Positions 1-17,369 of a DNA stretch of 32,000 nucleotides are shown one piece after another. Origin of the DNA: Cenarchaeum sp. (GTDB lineage: Archaea > Thermoproteota > Nitrososphaeria > Nitrososphaerales > Nitrosopumilaceae). The notes under the pieces were generated by a model that worked only from the letters and a program-made list of their open reading frames with translations, made no database searches and was not told the DNA's origin. Position 1 is the stretch's first letter, and each line of letters begins with the position of its first letter. The position numbers were made by a program, and so were the translations under genes. The stretch covers positions 166,690-198,689 of the forward strand of contig OZ242221.1 of the NCBI GenBank assembly GCA_965206845.1. Reading direction: 5' to 3'.

Positions 1-3000
1 CTTCTACTTGTCACAAGAGCGTACACAAAGTCGCCGATCCTTGCGGTGGCGACGCCGCATGCGCCGTCAAGCTCCATAAAGCCGTCTTTTCCGTCTCCTA
101 CTGACGAGGCAGCAGCCGGACTGGAGGGATCCGTGATGTTGATTATCTGGACACCGTCGTCGTTTCCGCTTGCCACGAGCGCGTACATAGATCCGCCGAT
201 CCCTGCGATGGCGATGCCGGCGGCGCCGTCAAGCTCCGTAAAGCCCCCCTCCCCGTCGGTCATGGCGGCCACGGCTACTGGGCTAGAGGGGTCCGTAATG
301 TCGATTATCTGAACGCCGTCGTCGTTTCCGCTTGCCACGAGCGCGTACATAGATCCGCCGATCCCTGCGATGGCGATGCCAGCGGCGCCATCAAGCTCCG
401 TAAAGCCCTCCTCCCCGTCGGTCATGGCGGCCACGGCTACTGGGCTAGAGGGGTCCGTAATGTCGATTATCTGAACGCCGTCGTCGTCTTCGCTTGCCAC
501 GAGCGCATACGCAGAGTCGCCGATCCTTGCGGTGGCGATACCGCACGCGCCGTCAAGCTCCGTAAAGCCCTCTTCTTCATCGCTAGCAGACGAGACGGCG
601 GCAGGGGCAAAGGGATCTGTGATGTTGATTATCTGGATACCGTTGTCAGTGGAGCCGGTGACGATGGAGTATGTGCCGGAACCAATTCCAATGATGGCTA
701 CGCCGCATGCGCCGCCAAGATTAGTAAAGCCAGCATCTGCGTCATCCACGGCGGATGCCGGAGTCGGAGATATCGGAATGGTAGTGTCAGTGACGGTTAT
801 GTCAATTGCACGATCAGGAGAGGCGTCAATCGGGTTGTCGTCGGTGCCCGCTACGGCCGATGACGCAATGTCCAGCTGCGCCGTATCCAGCGTGATAACA
901 GACCGGCGTTGCAGCTCGGTCAACCTGACGGTAATTGTGGCAGGGTCACTAGACGCGATCGTTGCCGCCCCTGCCAGCGCAATCCGGTCTGTCTCTCCCA
1001 CATCACTGATGAAAAGTTTGGCCAGATCAACGCCTGTGGAACTGATTGGCTTTGAGAACGTAATCGCAAGGATGCCCGTTACCTCGTCTAGAGTGGCCGA
1101 CAGGAACTCTGGCGGGGATGGGTGGGCAATATCGATTATCTGGATGGCATTGTCCATCTCCGATGCAACAAGGGCGTACAATTTGGTTCCGATTGCCACG
1201 GTGGCTATGTCAGACGCGCCGCCGAGTCCGTCAAACCCGTCCTCGCCGTCGATCGCAGACGCCACGGCAGTCGGGCTGAAAGGGTTTGTGATGTCTATTA
1301 CCTGCACGCCCCCGTCAGTGGCCGATGCGACAAAGGCGTACGTGGAGGAGCCGATTGCAACAGCAGCGATTCCGCGCGCTCCGGCAAGCTCGTCAAACCC
1401 GTCCCTGTCGTCGCTCACAGACGAGACGGCGACCGGATCTGAGGCATTCGTGATGTCGATTATTTGGACGCCGCTATCATACTCCGACGCGACAAGGGCA
1501 TAAGTGGAGGAGTCGATTGTGACTGTGGTGATTCCGGACGCGCCGGCAAGCTCGTCAAACCCACCAATTCTGTCACTCACAGACGAGACGGCGGCCGGGC
1601 TGGAGGGATTCGTGATGTCGATTATCTGGACGCCGTCATCGGCGTACGACGCGACGAGGGCGTACGTGGAGGCGCCGATTGTAACTGCAGCGATTCCGCG
1701 CGCGCCGGCAAGCTCGTCAAACCCGCCTTCCCCATCGGTGACAGACGCGGTTGCCGCCGGGCTGGAGGGATCCGTGACGTCGATTATCTGGACGCCGTCA
1801 TCGGCGTACGACGCGACGAGGGCGTACGTTCTGGCGCCTATCGTAACTGCAACGATGTCGGCCGCGCCGTCAAGCTCGTCAAACCTTCCCATTCCATCGG
1901 TGGCAGACGCCACGGTAGCGGGGTTGAAGGGATCCGTGACGTTGATTATCTGGACGCTGCTGTCCCAGTACGACGCGACGAGGGCATAGGTTAAGGCGCC
2001 GTCTGTGACCGTGGTGATGCCCCTGGCGCCGACAAGCCTTGTGAATCCAGCTATGTCGGCAACAGACGCGGTAGCGGCCGGGCTGGAGGGATCCGTGATG
2101 TCGATTATCTGAACGCCATCGTCGTAGACCGACGCGACGAGGGCATACGTCCCAGCTCCTATTGTGGCAACGGCAATGCCCCTAGCCCCGCGAAGCTCGT
2201 CAAAGCCATCCCGACCATCGGTTGCAGACGCCACGGCGGCCGGTGGAACAAACATGTACTCCAAGGCGTCGTCATATGCGGCCGGGATAACCGGTAGCCC
2301 GACAGGCGACAGTGGGTTGCCTGCAGCATCGGTAATGCCGTGGTCGGCAGAGACGTTTATGACAACCGGGAGGTTCGCGGGCACGGGATCGAAGATAAGG
2401 GTAACGGTGCTGTCGTTGTTGTCGGTTGCCGCTCCCACTGTCACGGAAGATCCGCCCGAGTCGGTGACGGCAAAGTCATCTCGGGTAATCCCGCCGAGGT
2501 GTTCGGAGAACGTCAGGACGACCCTGGACGGGGATCGGGCAACCGCAGAGACTAGTGCCGGCGCCTCGCCGTCATGGGCAAGTGAGATTATCTGGATGCC
2601 GTCACCTGTGGATGATGCGACAATGGCGTACGCTGCAGAATTTACTGTGACAGCGGTTATGTCAGCCGCGCCGTCGAGCCTGTCAAACCCACCCGCGCCG
2701 TCGGTCGCAGACGCAACGGCGGACGGGTCGGATGGATCCGTGACGTTGATCATCTGTACACCGTCGTCGTGTAGCGATGAGACTAGAACATACGTCAAGG
2801 AGTCGATTGTGATTGTGGCAATGCCGTGCGCCCCGTCAAGCTCGTCAAACCCGCCCTCGCCGTCGGTTGCTGATGCCACGGTGGCCGGGCTGGCAGGATC
2901 CGTGACGTTGATTATCTGGATGCCGTCGTCCCAGTGTGATGCGACAAGGGCGTACGTTGAGAGGCCGACTGCGACAACGGTAATGTCGTGCACGCCGTCA

Positions 3001-3797
3001 AGCCCGTCAAATTCACCTTTACCATCGGTTACCGATGCCACGGCGGCCGGACGGGTAGGATCCGTGATGTTGATTATCTGGATGCCGTCGTCGGTAAACG
3101 ACGCGACGAGCGCATAAGTCTTGGCGCCGATCCTTGCGGTGGCGACGGCGCTTGCGCCGTCAAGCTCGTCAAACTCGCCCACACCATCGGTGGCAGACGC
3201 TACGGCGACCGGACGGGCAGGATTCGTGATATCGATTATCTGGATGCCGTCATCGGTAAACGACGCGACAAGCGCATAAGTTCTGGCACCAATTTTTGCC
3301 GTGTCGATGCCCCGCGCGCCGGCAAGCACGTCAAACCCGTCCACACCATCGGTGGCAGACGCTACGGCGACCGGACGGGCAGGATTCGTGATATCGATTA
3401 TCTGGATGCCGTCATCGGTAAACGACGCGACAAGGGCGTACGTTCCGGCGCCGATCGCAACAGTAGCAATATCTGACGCGTTGTCAAGCTCGTCAAATCC
3501 ATCCACACCATCGGTGACAGATGCGGCGGCTACCGGGCGGGCAGGATCCGTGATATCGATTATCTGGATGCCGTCATCAGCGTATGATGCCACAAGGATG
3601 TACGTCTTGGTGCCAACCGTGACGGTGGCAGTGCCCCACGCTCCATCAAGCTCGTCAAACCCACCTTCCCCGTCGGCTGCGGACGCCACAGCCGACAGGC
3701 CTGGGGGGTCGGGTGTGGCAAACGCGCCACCCGGCAGTCCCGCCAGCATCAGAGCAGACGTTAGCAGTAGACAGGCCTTTGCTGTTATGATCTGCAT
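1..3797 (-). CDS. Giant secreted cell-surface protein, partial (C-terminus beyond the window start). Signal peptide, then LVIVD-like beta-propeller repeats interrupted by two Ig-like (SbsA/Big_5-type) linker domains.
   Basis: Hand translation of the minus strand from the ATG at 3797-3795 gives MQIITAKACLLLTSALMLAGLPGGAFATPDPP..., followed by units such as GTYILVASYADDGIQIIDITDPARP and GTYALVASFTDDGIQIIDITNP. An in-frame stop lies at 3837-3839 and there is no other start between it and 3797. The track lists no complete minus-strand ORF in 1-3797, as expected if this frame stays open to the window edge. 'gattatctgg' (the QII(D) codons on the minus strand) recurs with a ~162-nt period. Linkers translated by hand: ...PALVSAVARSPSRVVLTFSEHLGGITRDDFAVTDSGGSSVTV...ITDAAGNPL and ...LSATLDEVTGILAITFSKPISS...AVAGTDDNPI. 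Confidence 0.85.
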   Translation of the reverse strand, partial: MQIITAKACLLLTSALMLAGLPGGAFATPDPPGLSAVASAADGEGGFDELDGAWGTATVTVGTKTYILVASYADDGIQIIDITDPARPVAAASVTDGVDGFDELDNASDIATVAIGAGTYALVASFTDDGIQIIDITNPARPVAVASATDGVDGFDVLAGARGIDTAKIGARTYALVASFTDDGIQIIDITNPARPVAVASATDGVGEFDELDGASAVATARIGAKTYALVASFTDDGIQIINITDPTRPAAVASVTDGKGEFDGLDGVHDITVVAVGLSTYALVASHWDDGIQIINVTDPASPATVASATDGEGGFDELDGAHGIATITIDSLTYVLVSSLHDDGVQMINVTDPSDPSAVASATDGAGGFDRLDGAADITAVTVNSAAYAIVASSTGDGIQIISLAHDGEAPALVSAVARSPSRVVLTFSEHLGGITRDDFAVTDSGGSSVTVGAATDNNDSTVTLIFDPVPANLPVVINVSADHGITDAAGNPLSPVGLPVIPAAYDDALEYMFVPPAAVASATDGRDGFDELRGARGIAVATIGAGTYALVASVYDDGVQIIDITDPSSPAATASVADIAGFTRLVGARGITTVTDGALTYALVASYWDSSVQIINVTDPFNPATVASATDGMGRFDELDGAADIVAVTIGARTYALVASYADDGVQIIDVTDPSSPAATASVTDGEGGFDELAGARGIAAVTIGASTYALVASYADDGVQIIDITNPSSPAAVSSVSDRIGGFDELAGASGITTVTIDSSTYALVASEYDSGVQIIDITNASDPVAVSSVSDDRDGFDELAGARGIAAVAIGSSTYAFVASATDGGVQVIDITNPFSPTAVASAIDGEDGFDGLGGASDIATVAIGTKLYALVASEMDNAIQIIDIAHPSPPEFLSATLDEVTGILAITFSKPISSTGVDLAKLFISDVGETDRIALAGAATIASSDPATITVRLTELQRRSVITLDTAQLDIASSAVAGTDDNPIDASPDRAIDITVTDTTIPISPTPASAVDDADAGFTNLGGACGVAIIGIGSGTYSIVTGSTDNGIQIINITDPFAPAAVSSASDEEEGFTELDGACGIATARIGDSAYALVASEDDDGVQIIDITDPSSPVAVAAMTDGEEGFTELDGAAGIAIAGIGGSMYALVASGNDDGVQIIDITDPSSPVAVAAMTDGEGGFTELDGAAGIAIAGIGGSMYALVASGNDDGVQIINITDPSSPAAASSVGDGKDGFMELDGACGVATARIGDFVYALVTSR
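154..477. repeat. Two near-identical 162-bp tandem units (154-315 and 316-477) inside the giant repeat gene.
   Basis: Direct alignment by eye shows only 3 mismatches in 162 nt (g/a, g/a, c/t). Flanking units (1-153 and 478-640) are clearly more diverged. Confidence 0.9.
3181..3434. repeat. A 92-nt segment repeated identically at a 162-nt offset (3181-3272 = 3343-3434) inside the giant repeat gene.
   Basis: acaccatcggtggcagacgctacggcgaccggacgggcaggattcgtgatatcgattatctggatgccgtcatcggtaaacgacgcgacaag occurs twice without a mismatch. Confidence 0.9.
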
Positions 3798-4360
3798 GGC
3801 ATCACCCGTTAGACGGATCCCGCGATCCTGTCGGCACTAGGTGCGGTGATGCGTCTTGAATGCCTGCGCGTTCCTGTTGTGGCCGCCCACCTGGATCCTG
3901 CAGGATCCATTCCGATACAACCAGGAAATGCAAGACAGAGCCAGCTCTGATCTGGTCTGTGCTGCCCTGCCAGAACCCGTGAAGGCCTGTCCCAAGAGTA
4001 GAGAATGTGCAAAACAATGGGTGCTGTGTACAATACTGCAAGGCCGGATCAATCATGCGTTGTATAATACGCATATGACTCTTGTGTGAGTGGAAGCTCA
4101 GATGACGGCCCTTGGACGCCATTTGTGTATTTTGCTGCCTACAGCATTCCGATCAAAGATCCGCAGAGCTGATCCGACAGATCGTCGCACATGCCAAGGC
4201 CCAGTGTGAAGCACTCGGCTTGGCCAGAAGGCGCTCTGCAGTCTTTTGATCTCCAACCATATCGCTGCCCAGGCACAGAACGCAGCTCGCTTTCACAGCT
4301 GAAAACGGCATAGACAGCGCTCAGCACACACCAGATGGTTCGGCGGCTGGCAAAGGTGTT

Positions 4361-5926: not shown

Positions 5927-8900
5927 CTATTCGGGTGCTATGGCCACGTAAGCAGGAGGTATGTCTGCAACATTTACCGGGGATGATGGATCAGATATGT
6001 CAACTATTGGGGAGTTGATGCCATCCCGCATCAGGGACAGTACAAGAGTGTAGGAGTCCGTCTGCACTACATCGACGTCGATTACTCCGTAGATGGTGGT
6101 ACCGCCAAGACCAGTACCCGTCACGCTCAGGCCTACGGGGGATTCTGGATCTGTAATGTCGATTATCTGGAAGCTGTCCTTCTTACTTGAGGCCACTACG
6201 TACGCGCCGTCTCCTATGAGCACAGTATGCACGCTCTCGACTGCGTTCATGTAAGTGCCCGTCTCATGCCCCTGCAGGCTGGAGAGCCGGACCGGGTTGT
6301 ACGGATCCGAGATGTCCACTATGATGACGGCATCCATCCGGTAGCCCACCGCTACCAACAGTGTCTGCTCACCCACCTTTATGGTGTCCGAGTCCGTAAC
6401 AGAGTACAGTAGATCGTATCCCCCCTCCCCGCCTCGGATTATAGATGCAGGTCGTGGGTCTACAGGGTTGGTGATGTCGATTATCTGTACGCTGCTGTCT
6501 CCAAAGCTTGACACTACGGCAAACGTTCTGCTCCCTATTTTCACAGTATCGACATCCTCGGCACCGATAAGCTCAAAGCCATTCTCGCCGTGTCCGACAG
6601 TGGCGATCGAGAACGGCGCCGTTGGATCGTTCATGTATATCACGTGAAACGTATTGTCAAACGGTGACGCCGTTACGGCATACCACACATCGGAGATCTT
6701 GACCAGCTCCACATCCACCGGACTGGCAAGCCTGTCAAAGCTCCCTTCCCCGTCCCGTATGACAGATACCGGCACCGGCCTTGCAGGGTCACTCACATCC
6801 ACCACCTGTATCACGCTGTCCCGGAACCCGGCCACCAATGCGTACTGCCTGCCGTCTATTGCCCCCACATCGATTGCAGCAGGCCCTGCCACCTCAAATC
6901 CATCGTGTCCGTCCCGGATCGTGTATACCGGAACGGGCCGGGTCGGGTCGGTGATCTCAGTTACGCGGATCACGTCCTGCGAGTATACAGACGAGAGCGC
7001 GTACGTCCGGCCATCCGCCGTCACCGACTCTACTCCCTCAGGCCCGAATAGCTGCCATACGCTGTCCGGTCCTGAGACCAAGGCAGATACGGATATGGGA
7101 GATGACGGGTTCGTTATATCCACTATCTGCATGCTGTCCCCAAACGTGTTGATCACCACAGCATAGGCGCGCCCCTCCGTCGAGACGACCGATACGTCCA
7201 CCGGACCGGACAGATCCTCAAAGGTGTTGGGTCCGTTTACCATCGCAGAGACTGCCACCGGCGATGCCGGATCCGAGATGTCAATTATCTGCACAGAGTT
7301 GCCGGGCTCGCTTGTTACCAGCGCGTAGGTGCTGCCGGCGATGGCTGCCACATCCAGACTCTTTGAGCCCACCATGTGGACTATGCCGCCTTGGTCGTTT
7401 TGGAGCTGGGAGGCCATAACCGGCGAGTAGGGGTCAGATATGTCTATTACAGTAACCGTGTCGTCATAAGATCCCACCACCACTGCATAAGTGCCGTCTC
7501 CGATCCTGGCCGTCTGGACATCCTGGATCCCGCCGATCTCGTAGCCGTCCTGTCCATCAAATATGGAGGCTGCCGGAACAGGAGAGAGTATATCAGTAAT
7601 GTCTGTTATCTGTAGCGCCTCGTCGTAATAGCCAGTTGACAGGATGTAGGTGGAGCCGTCGATGGAAGCTGTATCGATTCTGAGGGTACCTGTGAGTGCA
7701 TCAAAGCCGTACTGGTCGTCGTGCATGGATATCACAGGTTCTGGAACATGCGGATCGGTAATGTCGATTATCTGTATGCCGTTCTCATAGTGGCTCGATA
7801 CGACAGCATACGTACTCTGACCCATCTCCACGGCGACAATGTGAGCAGGCGCAAACAGCGTTTCAAGGTCGCCCACACTGCTGACCAGCGCTGGTTTTGC
7901 GGGCTCGGTCACGTCCAGTATCGCCACGGTGTTGCTGCGGATGTTTGGGATCAGGGCATAGGTGCTGCCGCCGATCTCCGCTATCTCCACATCGTTTGGA
8001 CCGTAAAACTCCCCATACCCGTACTGGCCCCCGGTTATGCCGGCAACCGGTGTCGGGCTTGATGGATCCGTAATGTCGACAATTTCAATGGCATTGGCTG
8101 CAAAGTTTGCAACCATGGCATACAGGCGGCCATCTATGGTAACAGTGTCCATACCAACCGGGTCGTAGAGGCCCGTGCCGTCCCGCACATATGCTGGGAT
8201 CGGGGATTGCGGGTTGGTGACATCCAGCATGAACATGGTCTTGCCTGCCAGCATTACCCAGAGTCTGCCGTCTGATGACACTCCGCTTATGCCGTCAAAG
8301 CTGTTGGCATCAAACAGATCGGTGCCTGACAGGTAGAGTGGGGAGGCCGGATCGGCGATATCCACCACGTGTATCCGCTGGGAGTCCAGTATCAGGGCAT
8401 AGGATCTTCCGTCTGCGGCAAGTATGTCCATGTCAGTTATCCCGGCAAACCCGTACTCCATTACAGTTATCGGGGCCGGAGCGGAGGGATCCGAGAGATC
8501 CGCTACCTGTACGGCGTCGGTGCCGGCAATGAGTGCAAGGGCGCTCTCCCCGGTCACCAAGATCTCGATATCCACCAGATCGGTAATCGCCTCAAAGCCG
8601 TACTGGCCGTGCCTGATGACGGACTTGGCAGACGGGTCGAGTGGATCGGTAAAGTCTGCCACTTGGACGGCATCGACGCTTGAGACCAACACGTATGTCC
8701 TATCGCCTATGGAAAACTGCTCTATCTCCTGTCCTTCCTCTAGAGCAAAGAAGCTCCACACTCCGTCCCTGATCTCTCCTACAGGCGCCGGGGCTTTCGG
8801 ATCCGTCACATCAACTATCTGAACCGTGTCACCTGCAGTCAGCAGTGCATACGAGCCGCCGCCGGTCTGGATGACCTCGATGTCTGACACGGCAAGCTCC

Positions 8901-9236
8901 CCTGCCGTCCCAGGCAGAACCGACACGGTTGCCGGCCAGTATGGCTCTGCGATGTCCACTACGTGCAGGGTGCTGTTTTCTGAGCTGACCGCAAGCAGGT
9001 AGGGGCGTCCGTCTATGTATGATATCTGCATGTCTGCTGCCTCGAACCCGGATATCTCTGCCACCTTCAGGGGGGTGTGTGGCAGCGTGACATCCATTAC
9101 CCTGATCGGCCCGTCGCCTGCAAGGGCGTAGGTGCGACCATCTGCCTCCAGCACGGTCTCGGCGTGGGCCGCTGCCGGCATCGCGGCGACTGCCAGCAGC
9201 AGGATCGCAGCAACAAAAGTCCTCACGGGTATGGGT
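5927..9236 (-). CDS. Giant secreted LVIVD-like beta-propeller repeat protein (21 repeat units).
   Basis: The ORF 5927..9334 has 21 cores of the type VQIIDITDP(S/A)xP by my count (IRVMDVTLPHTP ... SPIVDISDPSSP). Signal-peptide-like RTFVAAILLLAVAAMPAAAHA|ETV follows a GTG at 9236, which I take as the likely start. The longest ORF begins at a GTG at 9334. AT-rich TATA-like boxes lie at 9241-9303. Confidence 0.9.
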
Positions 9237-9317
9237 TGCAGATATAATGCTATTATATTTGTCGGCTCTGTCGCATTATTTGTCTCCGCCAGGTAATTAT
9301 ATCCCCGGCGATCCCGC

Positions 9318-9689
9318 GTGTGTGAACCGCACACTAGTTGGAATCATTGCTGGCCTGGTGATAGCAATCGCAGGGCATACTTTGTTGAAGCCACAGAGGA
9401 GCTGCTTGAAGAACAGGGCATGGTTAAAGGCCCGCTCTTTTTGATTGCAGCGATAGCGTATGTTATAGTCGCGGTTTGGCTGCCCGTAAAAAGGAGCATC
9501 GCGCCAACAGTTGTAGCGCTGGCCGGAACCATGGGCCTAGCAGTGCCGTATGCTATAACAAGAGCCGATCCGGCTGCGGCGTTTGGAATGGAGACAGAAT
9601 GCATCGGACACCCCGGAATGGCCTCAAAGATCATTCAAGTTGGAGTTGTCCTAAGCACTGCGACAGCATTGCCTCAAGGAAAAAAATAG
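9318..9689 (+). CDS. Possible small integral membrane protein.
   Basis: The ORF contains three hydrophobic segments (GPLFLIAAIAYVIVAVWLPV, IAPTVVALAGTMGLAVPYAI, IIQVGVVLSTATAL). An internal ATG at 9420 (MVKGPLF...) is an alternative start. No homology recognised. The antisense ORF 9344..9634 is less protein-like. Confidence 0.4.
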   Translation: MCEPHTSWNHCWPGDSNRRAYFVEATEELLEEQGMVKGPLFLIAAIAYVIVAVWLPVKRSIAPTVVALAGTMGLAVPYAITRADPAAAFGMETECIGHPGMASKIIQVGVVLSTATALPQGKK

Positions 9690-12319: not shown

Positions 12320-12706
12320 TCAGGAGCCCATCATGCCCACCATCTTTGGCAGTTCCCGGTATGCCTTGCTCACAAATACGCCCGGGTCTGCCGACACCTG
12401 GACAAACTCCATCGAGTTGTTCGGTGGGGGCGAGACGATCACCTTTTGCCGGGGCTCCATGGTTCCCAGATCCAGCGTTTCGCCGCCGCCAAAGTTTACC
12501 CTCACATTGGACAGGGGCTGGAATCCTGTATTTTGAATGGTGATGCGGCCGGTAGTGAACAGGTTTTGCTTGTCGATTATCGGATCCACAAACAGCTCAT
12601 AGTCCTGCCCCCCGATGGTCATCTTTGCAACATCCATCCCAAAGACGACCGCCATTATGACTATGGCCGCCACGCCAGCAATGACTAGCCCGGTGTAGGT
12701 ATTCAC
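12320..12706 (-). CDS. Small membrane-anchored hypothetical protein.
   Basis: 128-aa ORF with a GTG start and an N-terminal TM segment (GLVIAGVAAIVIMAVVFGM) followed by a beta-rich domain. TTAATTATTATAAG lies about 20-30 nt upstream. Confidence 0.65.
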   Translation of the reverse strand: MNTYTGLVIAGVAAIVIMAVVFGMDVAKMTIGGQDYELFVDPIIDKQNLFTTGRITIQNTGFQPLSNVRVNFGGGETLDLGTMEPRQKVIVSPPPNNSMEFVQVSADPGVFVSKAYRELPKMVGMMGS

Positions 12707-12864: not shown

Positions 12865-13143
12865 CTAGCTGAACATTTGTCCCGGGGGCATGGATCTCTT
12901 CTGAAGCGATGTCTTCTCTACAGAGAACGTCCTGTTGGATGGAATTATGGACAGTTTTACCGACGTGTTGATTGCATAGTGGGTGGTCCCATCAGGATTT
13001 TTGAAGTTGGTTGCCTTGCCTACCCGGTCAAGATCCACCTTGACCTTTACAACCGTTCCGTCTTCCAGCTTGAACGACACGTACTCGTTCTCCAGCCTCT
13101 CATAGTCCAGCACCTCAAATTCGATCTTCTCTTTGCCGCTCAT
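12865..13143 (-). CDS. Small hypothetical protein (92 aa).
   Basis: The ORF is 12865..13206. I prefer the start at internal Met 22 (MSGKEKIEFEVLDYERLENEYVSFKLEDGTVVKVKVDL...) because the upstream 21 residues are Cys-rich and atypical. Composition is protein-like; no family recognised. Confidence 0.55.
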   Translation of the reverse strand: MSGKEKIEFEVLDYERLENEYVSFKLEDGTVVKVKVDLDRVGKATNFKNPDGTTHYAINTSVKLSIIPSNRTFSVEKTSLQKRSMPPGQMFS

Positions 13144-13274
13144 ACAGCATGCTACAATGAGGAAATATTTGGTTGTTTCCCGGCAGGCCGTGCAGATACC
13201 GTGCAACAGGCCTCCTGCCAGGTCGCAATACGGACAAGCCGACCCACGGAGGATGTTCTAAAACGGAATAGAGC

Positions 13275-14822
13275 CTAATACAGGTGGCTTGCGAGCTTGA
13301 TCTGATCCTGTGCAGAGATTACGTTCTTCTCGGCGAGCAAGTCCAACAGCTCCTCCAGCATCTTTTTGTGGGTAGAGGATAGCTCCACTACGGCCTGCTT
13401 GTCGTCGTCGGCGCTGCCAGGCGGGCCGCTTGGGCCAGGCGGACCCGTCGGCCCTGTAGAGCCGCGCTTTCCCTGCGGACCCTGAATCCCCTGTGGGCCA
13501 TGTGGTCCCGGTTCGCCAGGAGCTCCCTCCGGTCCGCGCCCTCCTTGTGGACCGGGCTTGCCGGCGGGACCTCTCACTCCAGGCTCCCCCTGCCGGCCAG
13601 GCATGCCAATGGGGCCACTTGTGCCTATCTCACCCTGCGAACCGCGGGGCCCTTTCTCGCCTGACGGGCCAACTGGTCCCTTGTCGCCTGAAGGGCCAGA
13701 AGGCCCTCTCCCTCCCAGTGCCCCGATGTGGCCTTTGTCACCGCGATCCCCCTTGTCCCCGGTCAGCCCCTTGGGTCCGAGGGATCCCTTGTCACCCTGG
13801 GAACCCATAGGCCCATCAGGGCCCTTGTCGCCCTTGGCCCCAGCAGATCCGCGCTCTCCCAGGGGGCCCTTGTCGCCGCGATCCCCTTTGTCGCCTGTCA
13901 GTCCCTTGCGCCCCGGAGGACCCTTGTCTCCCTGAGGCCCTGCTGGTCCATTCTCGCCCTTGTTGCCAAGGGGTCCGCGCCCGCCTGTGGCGCCCTTGTC
14001 ACCGCGATCCCCAATGCCACCAGTCAGTCCCTTAGGACCTATGTTTCCCTTGTCACCTGTTGGCCCCCTGAGGCCTGCGGAGCCCTTGTTGCCCCGCAAA
14101 CCTGGAGAGCCGACGGGGCCCTTATCGCCTGTCTGACCCCTGCGGCCTGCGGAGCCCTTGTTGCCACGAGGGCCAGGATGGCCGACGGGGCCCTTATCGC
14201 CTGCCTGACCCCTGCGGCCTGCGGAGCCCTTGTTGCCACGAGGGCCTGGTGGGCCTGATGGGCCCCTGTCGCCACGGAGGCCAGGAGTATCTGTTAAGTC
14301 CATGTCATCTGCAGATCCGGCAGGCTCCCCGTCATCTGCAGATCCTGATCCGGCACCTTCTGATCGGCGCGGCTCCTCGTCTACGGCGAGGCCTCCCGGA
14401 TCACCCTCTGTGCCATCCACATCCTCTGACGGTTTTGGAGCTCTAGTCTTACCGGGTGCATCCTGATCATCGGGCTGGCTCCGGACAATGGGTTTTGATT
14501 TTTTACCAGACCGGGATGCAGCGTGCACATCCACATCAAAAACGGAAAACAGTGGAGAGAACTGATCGATTGCCACTATCCAAGCCTTCGTCAGAGCAAG
14601 GACGCCCTTGGGCAAAGGATTCTCCGGGCTGCCCAGAACCTCAGAGTACATCCCATCGGTGATGCTCAAGTGGAAGTCCTGTTTCCAAAGGGATGAAATC
14701 TTGCCTGAAATGATATCAAGACCGTCGGGCTCGGATCCGACTATATGTATGGTTATCTCATATATTCCCGGATTTTTAAACGGCGCAGGTCCACGTACCG
14801 GTATTTGTGGGATGGACATCAT
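13275..14822 (-). CDS. Collagen-like triple-helix repeat protein: ~105-aa N-terminal domain, acidic linker, ~96 G-X-Y triplets, 46-aa C-terminal helical tail.
   Basis: 515-aa ORF. G-X-Y runs uninterrupted from [19 protein letters not shown]... to ...[13 protein letters not shown] (96 triplets by my count, roughly nt 13416-14283). It is rich in GDK, GDR and GPx triplets. The C-terminus is ...[30 protein letters not shown]. No N-terminal signal peptide is evident. Confidence 0.9.
14109..14252. repeat. Two 72-nt (24-aa) tandem units within the collagen-like region, with a third diverged unit at about 14037-14108.
   Basis: Units 14109-14180 and 14181-14252 differ at about 4 of 72 positions. They encode [15 protein letters not shown](A/T)GDKGPVG(H/S). 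Confidence 0.85.
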
Positions 14823-14864
14823 ACTTTACTTGCAAAACAGCTATTTCTGCATTTAGACGAAGTA

Positions 14865-16096
14865 GGCTGTGTCCCACGGACATATACTCCCTCAAAATCG
14901 CAAGGCATAATGATCCAATGATCGCGGCTCGACCCAATGAAAAAAATAAAACGCGATCAGCGACCATACGAGCTGGTCCAGCAGCATCTGTCGGGCCTCA
15001 TACTGAGCACGATACTGGGGATAGTTGAGGATCTGGGCGACCCATACCGGGCCAAGCCCGGACTGGGCGGCATGACCGCCTACCCGCCAAAGGCCATGGC
15101 CGTCGTCTGCATTCTCATGGAAGCAGAGGCGCGCACCTACCGAAAGATGGTGGGCCACCTCAGGATGAACCGGGGCCTCGCCATGAAGATAGGGCTGCCC
15201 AAGATACCCTCAAAGAGCACCATATGGCGCGCCTACGGCATGATCCCCGAGCCATACCTGCGTGAGGTCCACACGAGGATCATCGGCGACGTCATGGTGA
15301 CCGGTTCGGTGGCCGGGGACAGCACCGGCTACTCCGGCAACAGGTTCGTTCGGTGGTTCAGCATCCGCCACGGCCAGGTCAGGCTCAAGCGCGGCTGGGT
15401 CAAGCTGCACAGCATCGTCGATGTCTCCACCAGGACCGTCCTAGACTACCTAGTCACCGACGGGTACGCCTCCGACATCACAGGATTGTGGCCGATGCTG
15501 GGAAGGATCGAAGAAGGCGCCGACTTCTTCTGCCTGGACTCGGCCTACCTGGCCAGGAAGATCTGCGACGCCATATCCGACAAGGGCATGGTACCGCGCA
15601 TCCGGCCCAAGTCCAATACCGTCTGCAAGAACGGGGGCAGCCAGGCCTGGGGCGATATGACCAGAACGCACAGGGACGAGCTGGCCCGGTTCATGGACGA
15701 GTACCACCAGCGCAGCATCATCGAGGCCGTCTTTGGCGCAATCAAGAAAATGTACGGAAACCATCTTCGGAGCCGTAGGCGCGCCCGGCAGAGCCGGGAG
15801 ATAGCAATCCGGGTCATCTGCTACAACATCGAGGTGGTCACGCGATCGCACGTAAAAAGCGGCAGGCTCACGCACGAGTCGCTCACTGCAATGGCTGCCT
15901 GACTGGCGCGGTGACCGCCGCGCCGTCCGTGGGGGAGCCTGCGCACCACCCCTTGGATCGGATGAGATTTTACGGTTTCGGACAGACTTTGAAGCCGGTG
16001 ATATGCGAAAAATGCCACAATCCCAAGAATTCGGATAATGCCGTACCGGCACGGCATCAGCGGATGATTGTGGGGTTATGCCTCTAGGACACAGCC
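14865..16096 (+). mobile_element. Intact IS element (IS4/IS5-type DDE transposase), 1232 bp, with terminal inverted repeats and a 9-bp target-site duplication.
   Basis: The left end GGCTGTGTCC (14865-14874) is the reverse complement of the right end GGACACAGCC (16087-16096). A further subterminal match exists (AGGCATAA...CAAT.ATC). The element is flanked by the direct repeat GACGAAGTA at 14856-14864 and 16097-16105. Confidence 0.85.
14937..15902 (+). CDS. DDE transposase, IS4/IS5 superfamily.
   Basis: 321-aa ORF with candidate catalytic residues in GDSTGY and CLDSAY, and a Y-x2-R-x3-E-x6-K signature in YHQRSIIEAVFGAIKK. Confidence 0.88.
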   Translation: MKKIKRDQRPYELVQQHLSGLILSTILGIVEDLGDPYRAKPGLGGMTAYPPKAMAVVCILMEAEARTYRKMVGHLRMNRGLAMKIGLPKIPSKSTIWRAYGMIPEPYLREVHTRIIGDVMVTGSVAGDSTGYSGNRFVRWFSIRHGQVRLKRGWVKLHSIVDVSTRTVLDYLVTDGYASDITGLWPMLGRIEEGADFFCLDSAYLARKICDAISDKGMVPRIRPKSNTVCKNGGSQAWGDMTRTHRDELARFMDEYHQRSIIEAVFGAIKKMYGNHLRSRRRARQSREIAIRVICYNIEVVTRSHVKSGRLTHESLTAMAA

Positions 16097-16172
16097 GACG
16101 AAGTACCAGAATGGGGTCGCCTGCCGCCTCGTACCAGTCGTGAAGACTCTTCCGAATATGCGTTTTCGTACC

Positions 16173-17241
16173 TGGGCAGAAGTGTATTGTAACAAAACTA
16201 TGTCCTCCCCAGATCAGACGCACTCTGCGCGAATTTATTAGGTTACACTATCCAAGACGCCTGATGCCGGTCAAGCTGGATGACGACAAAATCAAGTACG
16301 TCATTCGCGAGAAGGAGAAAGGGACCCTCAACGCCACAATAGCTGAAAGCATGAAGATCAGCTCACGACATGTGCGACGCCTTTGGGCCAAGTACAGGAG
16401 TACCGGCTCGTTGCCGACGATCAGCAGTGGCGGCCGACCTGCCACCAAGACAATATCTGATGAGGAAGTCGAGATGGTGCTGGCCGAGTGCAGGAGAGGC
16501 TGTTCGGGGGTGGGACGGGTCACCAAGGCATTGGCGGACAAAAACATAAGCGGCCGCACCGTATACAACATAATGAAAAAACATGGGCTGGTGGAGTCGT
16601 GCCCCGCAAAGGCAAAAAAACGCAAATGGGTGAGATTTGAGCGGCAGTACTCTAACGCCATGTGGCATACGGACTGGCATGTCATGAAGGACTTCCGCGT
16701 GAGGGATCTGAACCTGATCACGTACCTGGACGATGCCTCGCGATGCGTCACCGGATACGGCGTGTTCAAAGAAGCAACCGGCCTGAATGCCGTGGAGGTG
16801 CTCAGGCAGGCAATTCTGGCGTTTGGCACCCCGGCATCCATCCTGTCGGACAACGGATCCTGCTTTGTGGGCGTGCGAAGCGGCACGCCGAAGGGAACAT
16901 GGACGCCTACTATCTTTGAGAGCGAGCTTCTGGATCGCGGCATACAGCTGATAAACTCAAGGCCGTACCATCCCCAGACCAACGGTAAGCTGGAGAGGTT
17001 CCACAGGACACTGGAGACCGAGGTGGGGCGGCACGACAGTTTGGACGACTTCGTCACGTACTACAACGAGAGGCGGCTGCATTGGTCGCTTGACATAGAC
17101 AACCACCAGACGCCGCTCAAGGCGTTCCATGATAAGGGGACGTATGAAACTATAAGAGTAGACAATCCAAACTGGATGGAGGTTGACATCCATGGATGAC
17201 CGGCGGACAAAGGGGGGAGGACATAGTTTTGTTACAATAGA
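16173..17241 (+). mobile_element. Intact IS481-type element, 1069 bp, with 28-bp terminal inverted repeats (1 mismatch) and 15-bp flanking direct repeats.
   Basis: The left end TGTATTGTAACAAAACTATGTCCTCCCC (16173-16200) matches the reverse complement of 17214-17241 (TCTATTGTAACAAAACTATGTCCTCCCC). The direct repeat GTACCTGGGCAGAAG lies at 16158-16172 and 17242-17256, abutting both ends. Confidence 0.85.
16264..17199 (+). CDS. Integrase-core (rve) DDE transposase with N-terminal HTH, IS481-like.
   Basis: 311-aa ORF. HTH region: TLNATIAESMKISSRHVRRLWAKY. DDE candidates: WHTDWH, LSDNGSCF and HPQTNGKLERFHRTL. Confidence 0.88.
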   Translation: MPVKLDDDKIKYVIREKEKGTLNATIAESMKISSRHVRRLWAKYRSTGSLPTISSGGRPATKTISDEEVEMVLAECRRGCSGVGRVTKALADKNISGRTVYNIMKKHGLVESCPAKAKKRKWVRFERQYSNAMWHTDWHVMKDFRVRDLNLITYLDDASRCVTGYGVFKEATGLNAVEVLRQAILAFGTPASILSDNGSCFVGVRSGTPKGTWTPTIFESELLDRGIQLINSRPYHPQTNGKLERFHRTLETEVGRHDSLDDFVTYYNERRLHWSLDIDNHQTPLKAFHDKGTYETIRVDNPNWMEVDIHG

Positions 17242-17369
17242 GTACCTGGGCAGAAGGGGACACGATCTCACACATGCACAGAGCCATGCCACAGCTCATT
17301 TGAGCGCAGGCGCATGTGTTTCAGACTGGCCATTGCGCCCTGTCTTGTGGGGAACGCAGCGATCTGCAT

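Follow-up and report, generated by a model that had tools for sequence, protein, structure and literature searches.

The collagen-like protein gene occupies positions 13275–14822 on the reverse strand of the window, by which we mean the whole 32,000-nt stretch of Cenarchaeum sp. DNA that was analysed. According to the open reading frame list it comprises 515 codons, with an ATG start and a TAG stop at 13275–13277; since an in-frame TAA is located two codons 5′ of the ATG, the N-terminus cannot be extended. A conserved motif, CTAAATGCAGAAATAGCTG, lies upstream at 14838–14856 (reverse strand, −34 to −16 from the ATG). The same motif was found at the same distance (CCAAATCCTGAAATACTTC) in marine homologues from 32–36% GC contigs and is common to the GC classes; it probably serves as the BRE/TATA core promoter of an mRNA with a short leader or none.

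The gene is surrounded by purC, citrate synthase, GDH and similar housekeeping genes. An IS5-family element (14865–16096, forward strand; transposase at 14937–15902, Pfam DDE_Tnp_1 and NCBIfam IS5) with inverted repeats is located 42 nt upstream of the ATG, and is bordered by a 9-bp target duplication, GACGAAGTA, at 14856–14864 and 16097–16105. It is followed by an IS481-family element (16183–17241, forward strand; transposase at 16264–17199), whose 26-nt inverted repeats are perfect and which is flanked by 15-nt direct repeats (16168–16182 and 17242–17256). Both elements are context lying outside the gene, and both are missing from the two assemblies (L165 and L166) of a relative with ~95% identity, which identifies them as recent insertions. 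Two giant secreted LVIVD-repeat proteins are also encoded near the gene; the initial annotation had pointed to giant adhesin-like proteins and a pair of IS elements in this region, and giant proteins with repeats and both elements are indeed there.

The 515-aa product scored above the gathering threshold of the Pfam Collagen family (PF01391, E = 2.9e-43, 145.9 bits against a cutoff of 27.2), the only Pfam family matched by the whole protein. The four-part layout initially described for this archaeal ORF (head, acidic linker, Gly-X-Y run and helical tail) was recovered in full. Residues 1–105 (14508–14822, reverse strand) constitute a conserved N-terminal domain, predicted to be a small beta-sandwich, with an AlphaFold2 model (pLDDT 86.9, pTM 0.79) of six strands of at least three residues plus short helices. 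This domain matched no family in Pfam, NCBIfam or PHROG; comparison with PDB structures yielded no informative neighbour (best TM 0.51, E = 0.16), that with viral predicted structures gave no significant match (best E = 0.018), and sequence searches of solved structures with the head and with the tail returned chance-level matches only. No match was obtained in a word-indexed search with the domain alone or in a first genome scan, exact look-ups of the window protein and of purC gave no record, and an exhaustive search produced 46 cluster representatives, 34 of them at E ≤ 1e-10 and reaching down to 5.9e-63. Columns G19, E22, H51, L52, G64 and D86 were invariant in both alignments A1 and A2, while W46 was invariant in A1 and conserved at 90% or more in the larger A2; the window protein, itself the query, carries the complete family set (G19, E22, W46, H51-L52, G64 and D86). 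Against L165 the domain had a dN/dS of 0.03. With so low a ratio, the head would most likely dock onto a conserved cellular partner.

The head is followed by an acidic low-complexity linker (residues 106–180, 14283–14507, reverse strand; 19 D+E versus 9 K+R); the linkers of homologues differ from it in composition, being Ser/Thr/Lys/Pro-rich, and in length. Homology between the window gene and the L084 fusion gene ends at the start of the linker, around codon 117. Residues 181–471 (13410–14282, reverse strand) form the collagen-like domain of 97 uninterrupted Gly-X-Y triplets (291 aa; the first count had been ~96 triplets and 288 aa), a run far beyond chance, which would extend for ~83 nm if triple-helical. 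GDK occurs 12 times among the 97 triplets, GDR and GNK four times each, GPx is common, and there are four KGD/KGE motifs, in agreement with the charged-pair-dominated usage plus GPx first reported; the accompanying idea that charge pairs stand in for hydroxyproline chemistry is supported as well. Proline fills the X position in 32 of 97 triplets (33%) and the Y position in 11%, Lys and Arg together account for 39 of 97 Y positions (40%), and the overall imino-acid content is modest (43 Pro per 291 residues). Composition changes along the rod, the 20 C-proximal triplets being Pro-rich and charge-poor. Four RGD motifs were located at residues 183, 273, 315 and 360, compared with 0–1 in ten marine homologues. 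A 72-nt (8-triplet) tandem repeat lies within the domain at 14065–14267 (reverse strand; 2.8 copies, 87% matches, TRF score 306). The near-identical 72-nt repeats of the initial annotation are thus real, while the recent expansion read from them is weakly founded, because L165/L166 (~95% DNA identity) contain them too.

Both independent assemblies of this relative carry the gene in the same synteny. Their scaffold gaps fall inside the repeat, short-read assemblies often break here and many database entries of the family are fragments, as might be expected of an assembly artefact or of non-coding low-complexity DNA. The probability of such an explanation is nevertheless negligible: the same gene is present at ~95% identity in two independent assemblies, the L165 copy keeps its reading frame to either side of its gap, and to these are added the pattern of purifying selection and hundreds of intact homologues. 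Absence or frameshift in independent assemblies, which had been named as grounds for rejection, was not seen. The ORF at 13275–14822 is a genuine gene under selection.

Comparison with L165 revealed 14 synonymous and no non-synonymous changes in the 97 Gly codons, against 34 non-synonymous changes at the X and Y positions, where dN/dS was 0.61 and 0.88, respectively. Such absolute Gly conservation gives indirect support for triple-helix formation, and the region, as read from its sequence, likely folds in this way. A flexible, charged and disordered spacer or gel-forming region with no triple helix would be compatible with the moderate proline levels (at X and at Y alike) and with near-neutral evolution of X and Y (dN/dS 0.6–0.9). 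That reading is unlikely, given zero Gly interruptions across 89–148 triplets in ~74 homologues and the complete lack of non-synonymous change in Gly codons; to our knowledge, a constraint on glycine this strict is demanded only by close triple-helix packing. In its charge-pair triplets and its Pro-rich clamp at a folded C-terminal domain, the protein also matches triple-helical Scl2 and BclA.

The non-collagenous C-terminal tail spans residues 472–515 (44 aa; 13278–13409, reverse strand), and its last ~33 residues form a conserved helix-turn-helix ending in SHLY. AlphaFold2 and alignments A4/A5 place this element at residues 483–513 (nt 13284–13376, reverse strand); with a 31-sequence alignment, AlphaFold2 predicted a helix at 483–498, a 5-residue loop and a helix at 504–513, with block-mean pLDDT of at least 90 over roughly the last 35 residues, in keeping with the helical tail foreseen in the initial annotation. 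Columns I42, Q47, I48, L50, L54 and Y55 of alignment A5 were invariant, and the window protein conforms to the family pattern ...LL(D/E)(L/I)L..K.(I/V)I(S/T)..(D/E)QIKL.S(Y/H)LY-stop derived from A4/A5. A profile of the tail returned 69 matches, which were thaumarchaeal collagen-like fragments wherever the organism was named, and the tail alone had no match in PHROG. A short C-terminal oligomerisation domain of SHOCT type, considered as a candidate identity for the helix-turn-helix, was rejected, as four family C-tails gave no SHOCT match even at E ≤ 10. Beside the collagen-like domain there is, in sum, a C-terminal helix-loop-helix predicted with high confidence and an adjacent Pro-rich clamp. 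The modelled hairpin may serve as a trimerisation or nucleation module, a proposal to which we give slightly better than even chances.

Screening for export signals gave a uniform picture. The window protein lacks both a signal peptide and a membrane segment (its highest Kyte-Doolittle mean over 19 residues is 1.31), its N-terminus is not hydrophobic (residues 1–20 average 0.05) and it carries neither an LPXTG (LP.TG) nor a PGF anchor motif, and the missing secretion signal noted at the outset was thereby upheld by hydropathy and motif scan. Signal peptide, membrane segment and anchor were likewise lacking in the marine homologues. These absences suggest that both the synthesis and the assembly of the protein occur in the cytoplasm.

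A scan of marine metagenomes identified 287 loci of the family. In about 74 of the 80 loci inspected the gene was complete (ORFs of 436–616 aa) and carried the same C-terminal ending as the window protein. The architecture is fixed: a ~100-aa beta-sandwich head beginning at Met1, a variable low-complexity linker, one unbroken Gly-X-Y run and a ~33-aa C-terminal helix-turn-helix whose last residues are S-[YH]-L-Y. The single run ranged from 89 to 148 triplets with zero Gly interruptions in the ~74 complete homologues, corresponding to rods of 76–127 nm across the family. The N-domain profile yielded 61 matches, and all organism-named N-domain and C-tail matches were ‘collagen-like protein’ entries of Nitrosopumilus, Nitrosopumilaceae or Thaumarchaeota. 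Very probably, therefore, the gene is this genome’s orthologue of a vertically inherited, Nitrosopumilaceae-wide collagen-like family, which is apparently present in all Nitrosopumilaceae sampled, planktonic low-GC types included. Rarity in archaea, as first asserted, does not hold for the Nitrosopumilaceae, considering the 287 marine loci and the conserved neighbourhood in low-GC, free-living-type members. Of the second ground for rejection, close homologues widespread in free-living archaea and with an assigned function, the first half proved true; no function has been assigned, and we found no characterisation of this family in the literature.

In the 32–36% GC contigs, synteny is conserved in the order Thi4, sulfite reductase, rhodanese, TPR protein, collagen-like gene, DRG-type GTPase and ArgRS, whereas the window copy and that of the ~95% relative are both situated between purC and DUF3179. 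No collagen-like ORF was found in the purC neighbourhoods of 80 Nitrososphaeria species (mostly Nitrosopumilaceae), and linkage to purC is specific to the window’s lineage. No partner gene travels with the family, and the window copy does not have beside it the divergent TPR gene that neighbours the marine-clade copies. The TPR part of the P0001 fusion aligned to the marine TPR neighbour at 28% over 104 aa, which is the level of generic repeats, and no specific TPR link was drawn from it.

The initial annotation had named a viral or horizontal origin as an alternative. A collagen-like tail-fibre or virion protein of a provirus, or a gene captured from a bacterium or an animal, would be in line with the strong PHROG tail-fibre matches of the whole protein (phrog_5073 at E = 2.3e-69, and others) and with the adjoining IS elements. 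The best-scoring stretch of the PHROG matches shown, however, lies in the collagen repeats (one match begins in the linker), the N-domain and C-tail on their own match no PHROG, and viral predicted structures contained nothing significant. When 2.9 million viral contigs were scanned once with a 5-sequence marine-clade N-domain alignment in the form of two short peptide patterns, nothing matched. The gene has housekeeping neighbours with synteny conserved in relatives, and the IS elements are absent from a ~95% relative that already possesses it. Codon usage, compared with the flanking genes as had been recommended, pointed the same way: GC3 and Gly codon usage were host-like, with somewhat different Pro and Arg preferences. 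We consider a viral or horizontal source very improbable and vertical descent within the Nitrosopumilaceae the better account.

Host-matrix mimicry, also raised at the outset, would have a symbiont display an RGD-bearing collagen-like fibre in order to bind sponge matrix or integrins. The excess of RGD motifs over the marine homologues speaks for it, as do the giant secreted LVIVD-repeat proteins nearby and the genome itself, which is ~56% GC and IS-rich, features typical of sponge-associated Nitrosopumilaceae; a related IS-rich genome of 2.47 Mb exists. Yet planktonic-type Nitrosopumilaceae of 32–36% GC have this architecture throughout, so that it did not arise for a host, the protein has no signal peptide or anchor, and RGD appears automatically when GDK becomes GDR in a higher-GC genome. 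Mimicry found no support here and is, in our estimation, improbable. Because the family is widespread in planktonic-type Nitrosopumilaceae and has a conserved neighbourhood, neither mimicry nor a virus nor horizontal transfer is needed, and the story of symbiosis or viral capture gives way to one of ordinary vertical inheritance.

Taken as a whole, we are fairly confident in an explanation by which the gene encodes a vertically inherited, Nitrosopumilaceae-wide, collagen-like rod protein of fixed architecture. In the proposed assembly, the C-terminal helical hairpins of three chains would set the register, adjacent Pro-rich triplets would nucleate the triple helix, and the helix would then zip from the C-terminal towards the N-terminal end; with no hydroxyproline, its stability would come from Pro at X positions and from pairs of Asp/Glu with Lys/Arg (GDK, GDR, KGD, KGE). 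The product would be a stiff homotrimeric rod of ~83 nm (76–127 nm across the family), bearing at one end three strongly conserved heads on flexible acidic linkers and at the other the conserved aromatic C-terminus. Such a rod could act as a spacer or fibre of strain-variable length. A role in the cell envelope or at the surface is possible at somewhat less than even chances, and an intracellular role may be entertained with appreciable doubt. All bacterial collagen-like proteins that have been studied well act at the surface, and the missing export signal does not go well with this.

Nearly all prokaryotic collagen-like proteins known so far are adhesins secreted by bacterial pathogens, hairs on spores or fibres of phages. 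In the Bacillus cereus group, the exosporium hair protein BclA resembles the window protein in having no signal peptide and a collagen-like region that varies in length between strains, which in BclA sets fibre length. Its short N-terminal attachment region and its C-terminal domain, by which the chains trimerise and the helix is nucleated, follow the logic, also proposed here, of a rod that docks by one conserved end. The two differ in that the C-terminal domain of BclA is a C1q/TNF-like beta-jellyroll, in place of a 44-aa tail with a ~33-aa helix-turn-helix, and the protein is consequently not of BclA type; the N-terminal part of BclA is a short targeting peptide instead of a 100-aa beta-sandwich, and there is zero sequence similarity outside the Gly-X-Y region. 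BclA is moreover deposited on the spore within a mother cell bound to lyse, a route with no equivalent in an archaeon. Collectins and C1q combine, as is proposed for the present protein, a collagen stalk with a short helical oligomerisation element and globular heads on a trimeric rod. Collectins run from collagen through a coiled-coil neck to a C-terminal lectin head, whereas the window protein has its head at the N-terminus and its helical element at the extreme C-terminus, with no match in either sequence or fold.

Collagen-like phage tail fibres (phrog_5073, phrog_1806) share with the proposed rod the build of a trimeric fibre that has a collagen-like shaft and is made in the cytoplasm, and the PHROG matches are strong. 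They differ in that head and tail here have no PHROG or viral structural counterpart, and the window gene, unlike phage-fibre genes, is chromosomal, syntenic and core, which sets it apart from the phage-fibre class. The likeness of the proposed rod to streptococcal Scl1/Scl2 lies in a hydroxyproline-free triple helix with charged triplets and in the need for a non-collagenous trimerisation domain for folding. The best NCBIfam matches were indeed Scl1/SclA (NF038330, 138.3 against 400 bits) and Scl2/SclB (NF038329, 217.1 against 325 bits), both below cutoff and covering the repeats only, and the marine homologues fell below these cutoffs as well; the Legionella Lcl adhesin model (NF046116) was also well short of its cutoff (159.6 against 500 bits). 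Scl proteins have a signal peptide and an LPXTG sorting signal, neither of which occurs in the window protein, their globular V domain is N-terminal, helical and itself the trimerisation unit, unlike the arrangement here, and the present organism is an archaeon without sortase-type wall anchoring. Expressed collagen-like adhesins, described as LPXTG-anchored, have been reported in Ca. Nitrosotenuis chungbukensis MY2 (PMC13037477) and could not be linked to this family, whose members score below the SclA/SclB cutoffs.

What distinguishes the family is the combination of a strictly unbroken triple-helix motif, a head under very strong purifying selection, two flanking domains without a described family and no export signal. 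If characterised, it could bring to light an unrecognised structural part of ammonia oxidisers in the sea, be it intracellular or in their envelope, and could supply a very small natural trimerisation or nucleation module for recombinant hydroxyproline-free collagens. Rather speculatively, and with the odds against it, the protein might be a core structural element of this abundant marine archaeal lineage: a cytoplasm-made rod of 76–127 nm, intracellular or exported by an unrecognised route, with a head fold and a minimal helix-turn-helix trimerisation unit that would both be new. Were that so, an intracellular ruler, tether or cytoskeleton-like spacer would be the first for a cellular collagen. 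RGD gains in the sponge-associated, higher-GC branch could have co-opted the rod for host contact, and in this particular genome the IS5 insertion may alter expression of the collagen-like gene.

The collagen-like gene (13275-14822, minus strand) is real and conserved, and less exotic than the initial annotation proposed, being neither rare in its lineage, nor host-specific, nor viral. It encodes a protein of 515 aa from an ATG, and the N-terminus is fixed by an in-frame TAA two codons upstream. A single uninterrupted run of 97 Gly-X-Y triplets (residues 181–471; 145.9 bits against Pfam Collagen) follows an acidic linker (residues 106–180, net charge −10). The most frequent triplets are GDK (12), GPS, GSA, GDR, GPP, GNK and GPQ, with Pro at 33% of X positions and Lys/Arg at 40% of Y positions; the 20 triplets adjoining the C-tail are Pro-rich and charge-poor, while the remaining rod is charge-rich. 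Part of the run is encoded by a 72-nt (8-triplet) tandem repeat at 14065-14267 (2.8 copies, 87% matches). The first 20 residues had no hydrophobic character, the highest 19-residue hydropathy anywhere in the protein was 1.31, and a search for LPXTG and PGF motifs returned none. The initial description of the ORF, Gly-X-Y run, acidic linker, 72-nt repeat and missing signal peptide proved accurate on re-measurement; its interpretation was borne out in part.

Comparison with independent assemblies, suggested initially as a check for an artefact, recovered the gene in both L165 and L166, scaffolds of a close relative from different samples that are 94–95% identical to window positions 9.5–25 kb and alike in gene order. 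Both have a scaffold gap inside the repeat (L165:9404-9503; L166:9265-9364), and the L165 copy is in frame on either side of its 100-N gap. Between the window and L165, dN/dS was 0.03 in the N-domain (9 synonymous changes, 1 non-synonymous), 0.61 at X positions and 0.88 at Y positions, and the 97 Gly codons carried 14 synonymous and 0 non-synonymous changes. The absence of any Gly hit among 34 non-synonymous changes in the collagen domain has a chance of ~1e-6 if changes fall randomly over the three triplet positions. This substitution pattern indicates purifying selection on the head domain and on the glycine register alike; together with the L165/L166 copies, the sparing of glycine therefore excludes an artefact.

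The N-terminal part drew no match in a word-indexed search; 1.84 billion cluster representatives searched exhaustively with HMMER yielded 46 N-domain homologues (34 with E ≤ 1e-10). All sufficiently long homologues share one layout: a ~100-aa N-domain from residue 1, a low-complexity linker, GDK-rich triplets and a common C-terminus (...KKLIKELLELLASKNIISTEEQIKLTSYLY in database homologues P0027 and P0008, comparable to that of the window protein). In profile searches the N-domain had 61 matches and the C-tail 69, and every organism-named match was a 'collagen-like protein' of Nitrosopumilus, Nitrosopumilaceae or Thaumarchaeota. The family gene was present at 287 loci in a metagenome scan, so that the supposed rarity in archaea does not hold for Nitrosopumilaceae. 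Complete ORFs of 436–616 aa were found in ~74 of the 80 metagenome loci retrieved, almost all with one unbroken run of 89–148 triplets, and the C-tail was near-invariant (GGMSSEQKAIFKELLEILTTKEIISTEEQIKLMSYLY). A rod motif ending (E/K)RG is common to the window protein and marine homologues, and gene length is polymorphic even among near-identical strains.

Short-read assemblies and gene callers often break or frameshift the gene inside its repeats, most public entries for the family are 35–200-aa fragments, and frameshifted copies occur in long-read contigs L081–L083; such breakage probably explains why the family escaped notice. Public records already call the fragments 'collagen-like protein'. 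Our literature search found no characterisation of the family; expressed 'collagen-like adhesins' were reported in a Nitrosotenuis strain (PMC13037477), and a connection to the family could not be made.

Profile searches of the non-collagen parts, as initially advised, placed neither the N-domain nor the C-tail in any Pfam family. The N-domain also lacked matches in NCBIfam, PHROGs and PDB sequences. Its AlphaFold2 model (50 sequences; pLDDT 86.9, pTM 0.79) predicts a compact 6-stranded beta-sandwich plus short helices. Residues G19, E22, H51, L52, G64 and D86 were invariant in two alignments; W46 was invariant in one of these, the first, and ≥90% conserved in the other. Among PDB structures, Foldseek ranked the SgrA ligand-binding domain highest (TM 0.51, E = 0.16); judged from the model, the fold class is generic and uninformative on function. 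For the C-tail, AlphaFold2 (31 sequences) predicts a helix at 483–498, a 5-residue loop and a helix at 504–513 (block-mean pLDDT ≥ 90). A SHOCT identity was rejected for this tail, as Pfam gave no match even at E ≤ 10.

In contigs of 32–36% GC, the gene has a constant chromosomal neighbourhood: Thi4, sulfite reductase, rhodanese, divergent TPR protein, collagen-like gene, basic repeat protein, DRG-type GTPase, hydrolase and ArgRS. Directly downstream of marine collagen-like genes, on the opposite strand, is a small and strongly basic protein of Lys/Ala/Pro repeats (MATKRKAATKRR...KAAPKRKA...; L143:7663-8049, L161:6617-6913 and L108:4129-4401, all minus strand) that had no Pfam match. GC of the window is 50–63%, and its purC is at most 69% identical to that of Nitrosopumilus metagenome-assembled genomes, which places the organism among the Nitrosopumilaceae. 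The housekeeping neighbours include purC, an ArsR-type regulator, DUF3179, DHH phosphoesterase, citrate synthase, MOFRL kinase and glutamate dehydrogenase, and the region is not a provirus. The proposed codon comparison with flanking genes found GC3 (0.59) and Gly codon choice similar, and Pro and Arg preferences somewhat different. A viral or horizontally transferred origin, raised initially, is disfavoured by the synteny and by GC3 and Gly codon usage, as well as by a viral contig scan with a marine-clade N-domain alignment, which gave no match, and by the fold search (best E = 0.018 for the N-domain against viral predicted structures). The PHROG matches shown lie in the repeats; the gene is not viral.

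By analogy with bacterial collagens and BclA, the C-terminal hairpins of three chains may associate, GPP-type triplets beside the hairpin would nucleate a triple helix, and this would zip toward the N-terminus, stabilised by X-position Pro and Asp/Glu–Lys/Arg pairs. A rise of 0.286 nm per residue would give a rod of ~83 nm in the window protein and 76–127 nm across the family, with three conserved heads attached through flexible linkers. Length polymorphism and fast X/Y evolution fit a spacer role in which exact sequence has little weight, and docking to a conserved cellular partner would suit the strong constraint on the head. A disordered spacer lacking a triple helix is a less likely reading and would leave the absolute glycine register unexplained. 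For the triple-helical rod, BclA would be the nearest working likeness (cytoplasmic synthesis, length-variable collagen-like region, C-terminal nucleation), and Scl2 offers a parallel in its hydroxyproline-free, charge-stabilised helix. Unlike BclA, the window protein has no C1q-like domain, and unlike Scl2, neither LPXTG motif nor signal peptide; with NCBIfam scores of the family below cutoffs, it stands outside both families. It varies the prokaryotic collagen-like theme: both domains that flank the rod are undescribed, and the archaeal family is conserved throughout its lineage.

RGD is a classic integrin-binding motif. RGD tripeptides occur at residues 183, 273, 315 and 360 (nt within 13410-14282), all in the collagen-like domain; the ~95% relative has RGD tripeptides as well, and ten marine low-GC homologues have 0–1 each. 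These four motifs are the sole point in favour of the host-matrix mimic envisaged initially, and a Lys-to-Arg shift in the higher-GC genome probably accounts for them, GDK becoming GDR as GC rises. The family is moreover older than any host association and has no export signal. No export or anchoring signals were found in the window protein or the marine homologues examined, and this complete lack is the main puzzle of the family.

Two IS elements have inserted into the promoter-proximal 232-nt region upstream of the gene: an IS5-family element (14865-16096; intact transposase, 10-bp terminal repeats GGCTGTGTCC, 9-bp target duplication GACGAAGTA) and an IS481-family element (16183-17241; intact transposase, perfect 26-nt inverted repeats, 15-nt direct repeats GTACCTGGGCAGAAG). 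Both are recent insertions, since they are absent from the 94–95%-identical syntenic L165/L166, where the flanks join exactly. The motif C[CT]AAAT.C.GAAATA.CT at −34 to −16 from the start codon (14838-14856, minus strand) is common to the 56% GC window genome and 32–36% GC homologues (L086, L115, L143, L081–L083), and is probably the core promoter (BRE/TATA) of a short-leader or leaderless mRNA. The IS5 insertion point lies 42 nt from the ATG, and the motif is still intact because of the target duplication.

On a relative's 2.47-Mb circular contig, the 1767-aa fusion protein P0001 (L084:9996-15304) opens with the N-domain's initial ~116 codons (against window 14471-14824; 91% nt and aa identity), homology ending exactly at the linker start, and continues in frame with TPR repeats, DUF4011, an SF1 helicase (AAA_11/AAA_12) and an MTES_1575 nuclease domain. 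Its ATG is preceded, at 5 nt, by an IS5-type terminal repeat (..GGACACAGCC), and ~115 nt further upstream the 5' end of the collagen-like gene recurs in a second copy of 58 nt; this looks like IS-mediated capture of a gene fragment.

The window also encodes two giant LVIVD/choice-of-anchor-B repeat proteins (3-3836 and 5927-9334, both minus strand). The latter has 1135 aa; the former, of >1278 aa, extends past the window start and has a signal-peptide-like N-terminus (MQIITAKACLLLTSALMLAGLPGGAFA), and plus-strand ORFs at 532-3840 resemble its antisense shadows. Two small ORFs between the collagen-like gene and purC (12320-12706 and 12865-13206, both minus strand) matched no family and are both kept in L165; in the 128-aa one, a short polar stretch at the N-terminus precedes a hydrophobic segment (MNTYTGLVIAGVAAIVIMAVVFG), which recalls the pilin-type signals of archaea.
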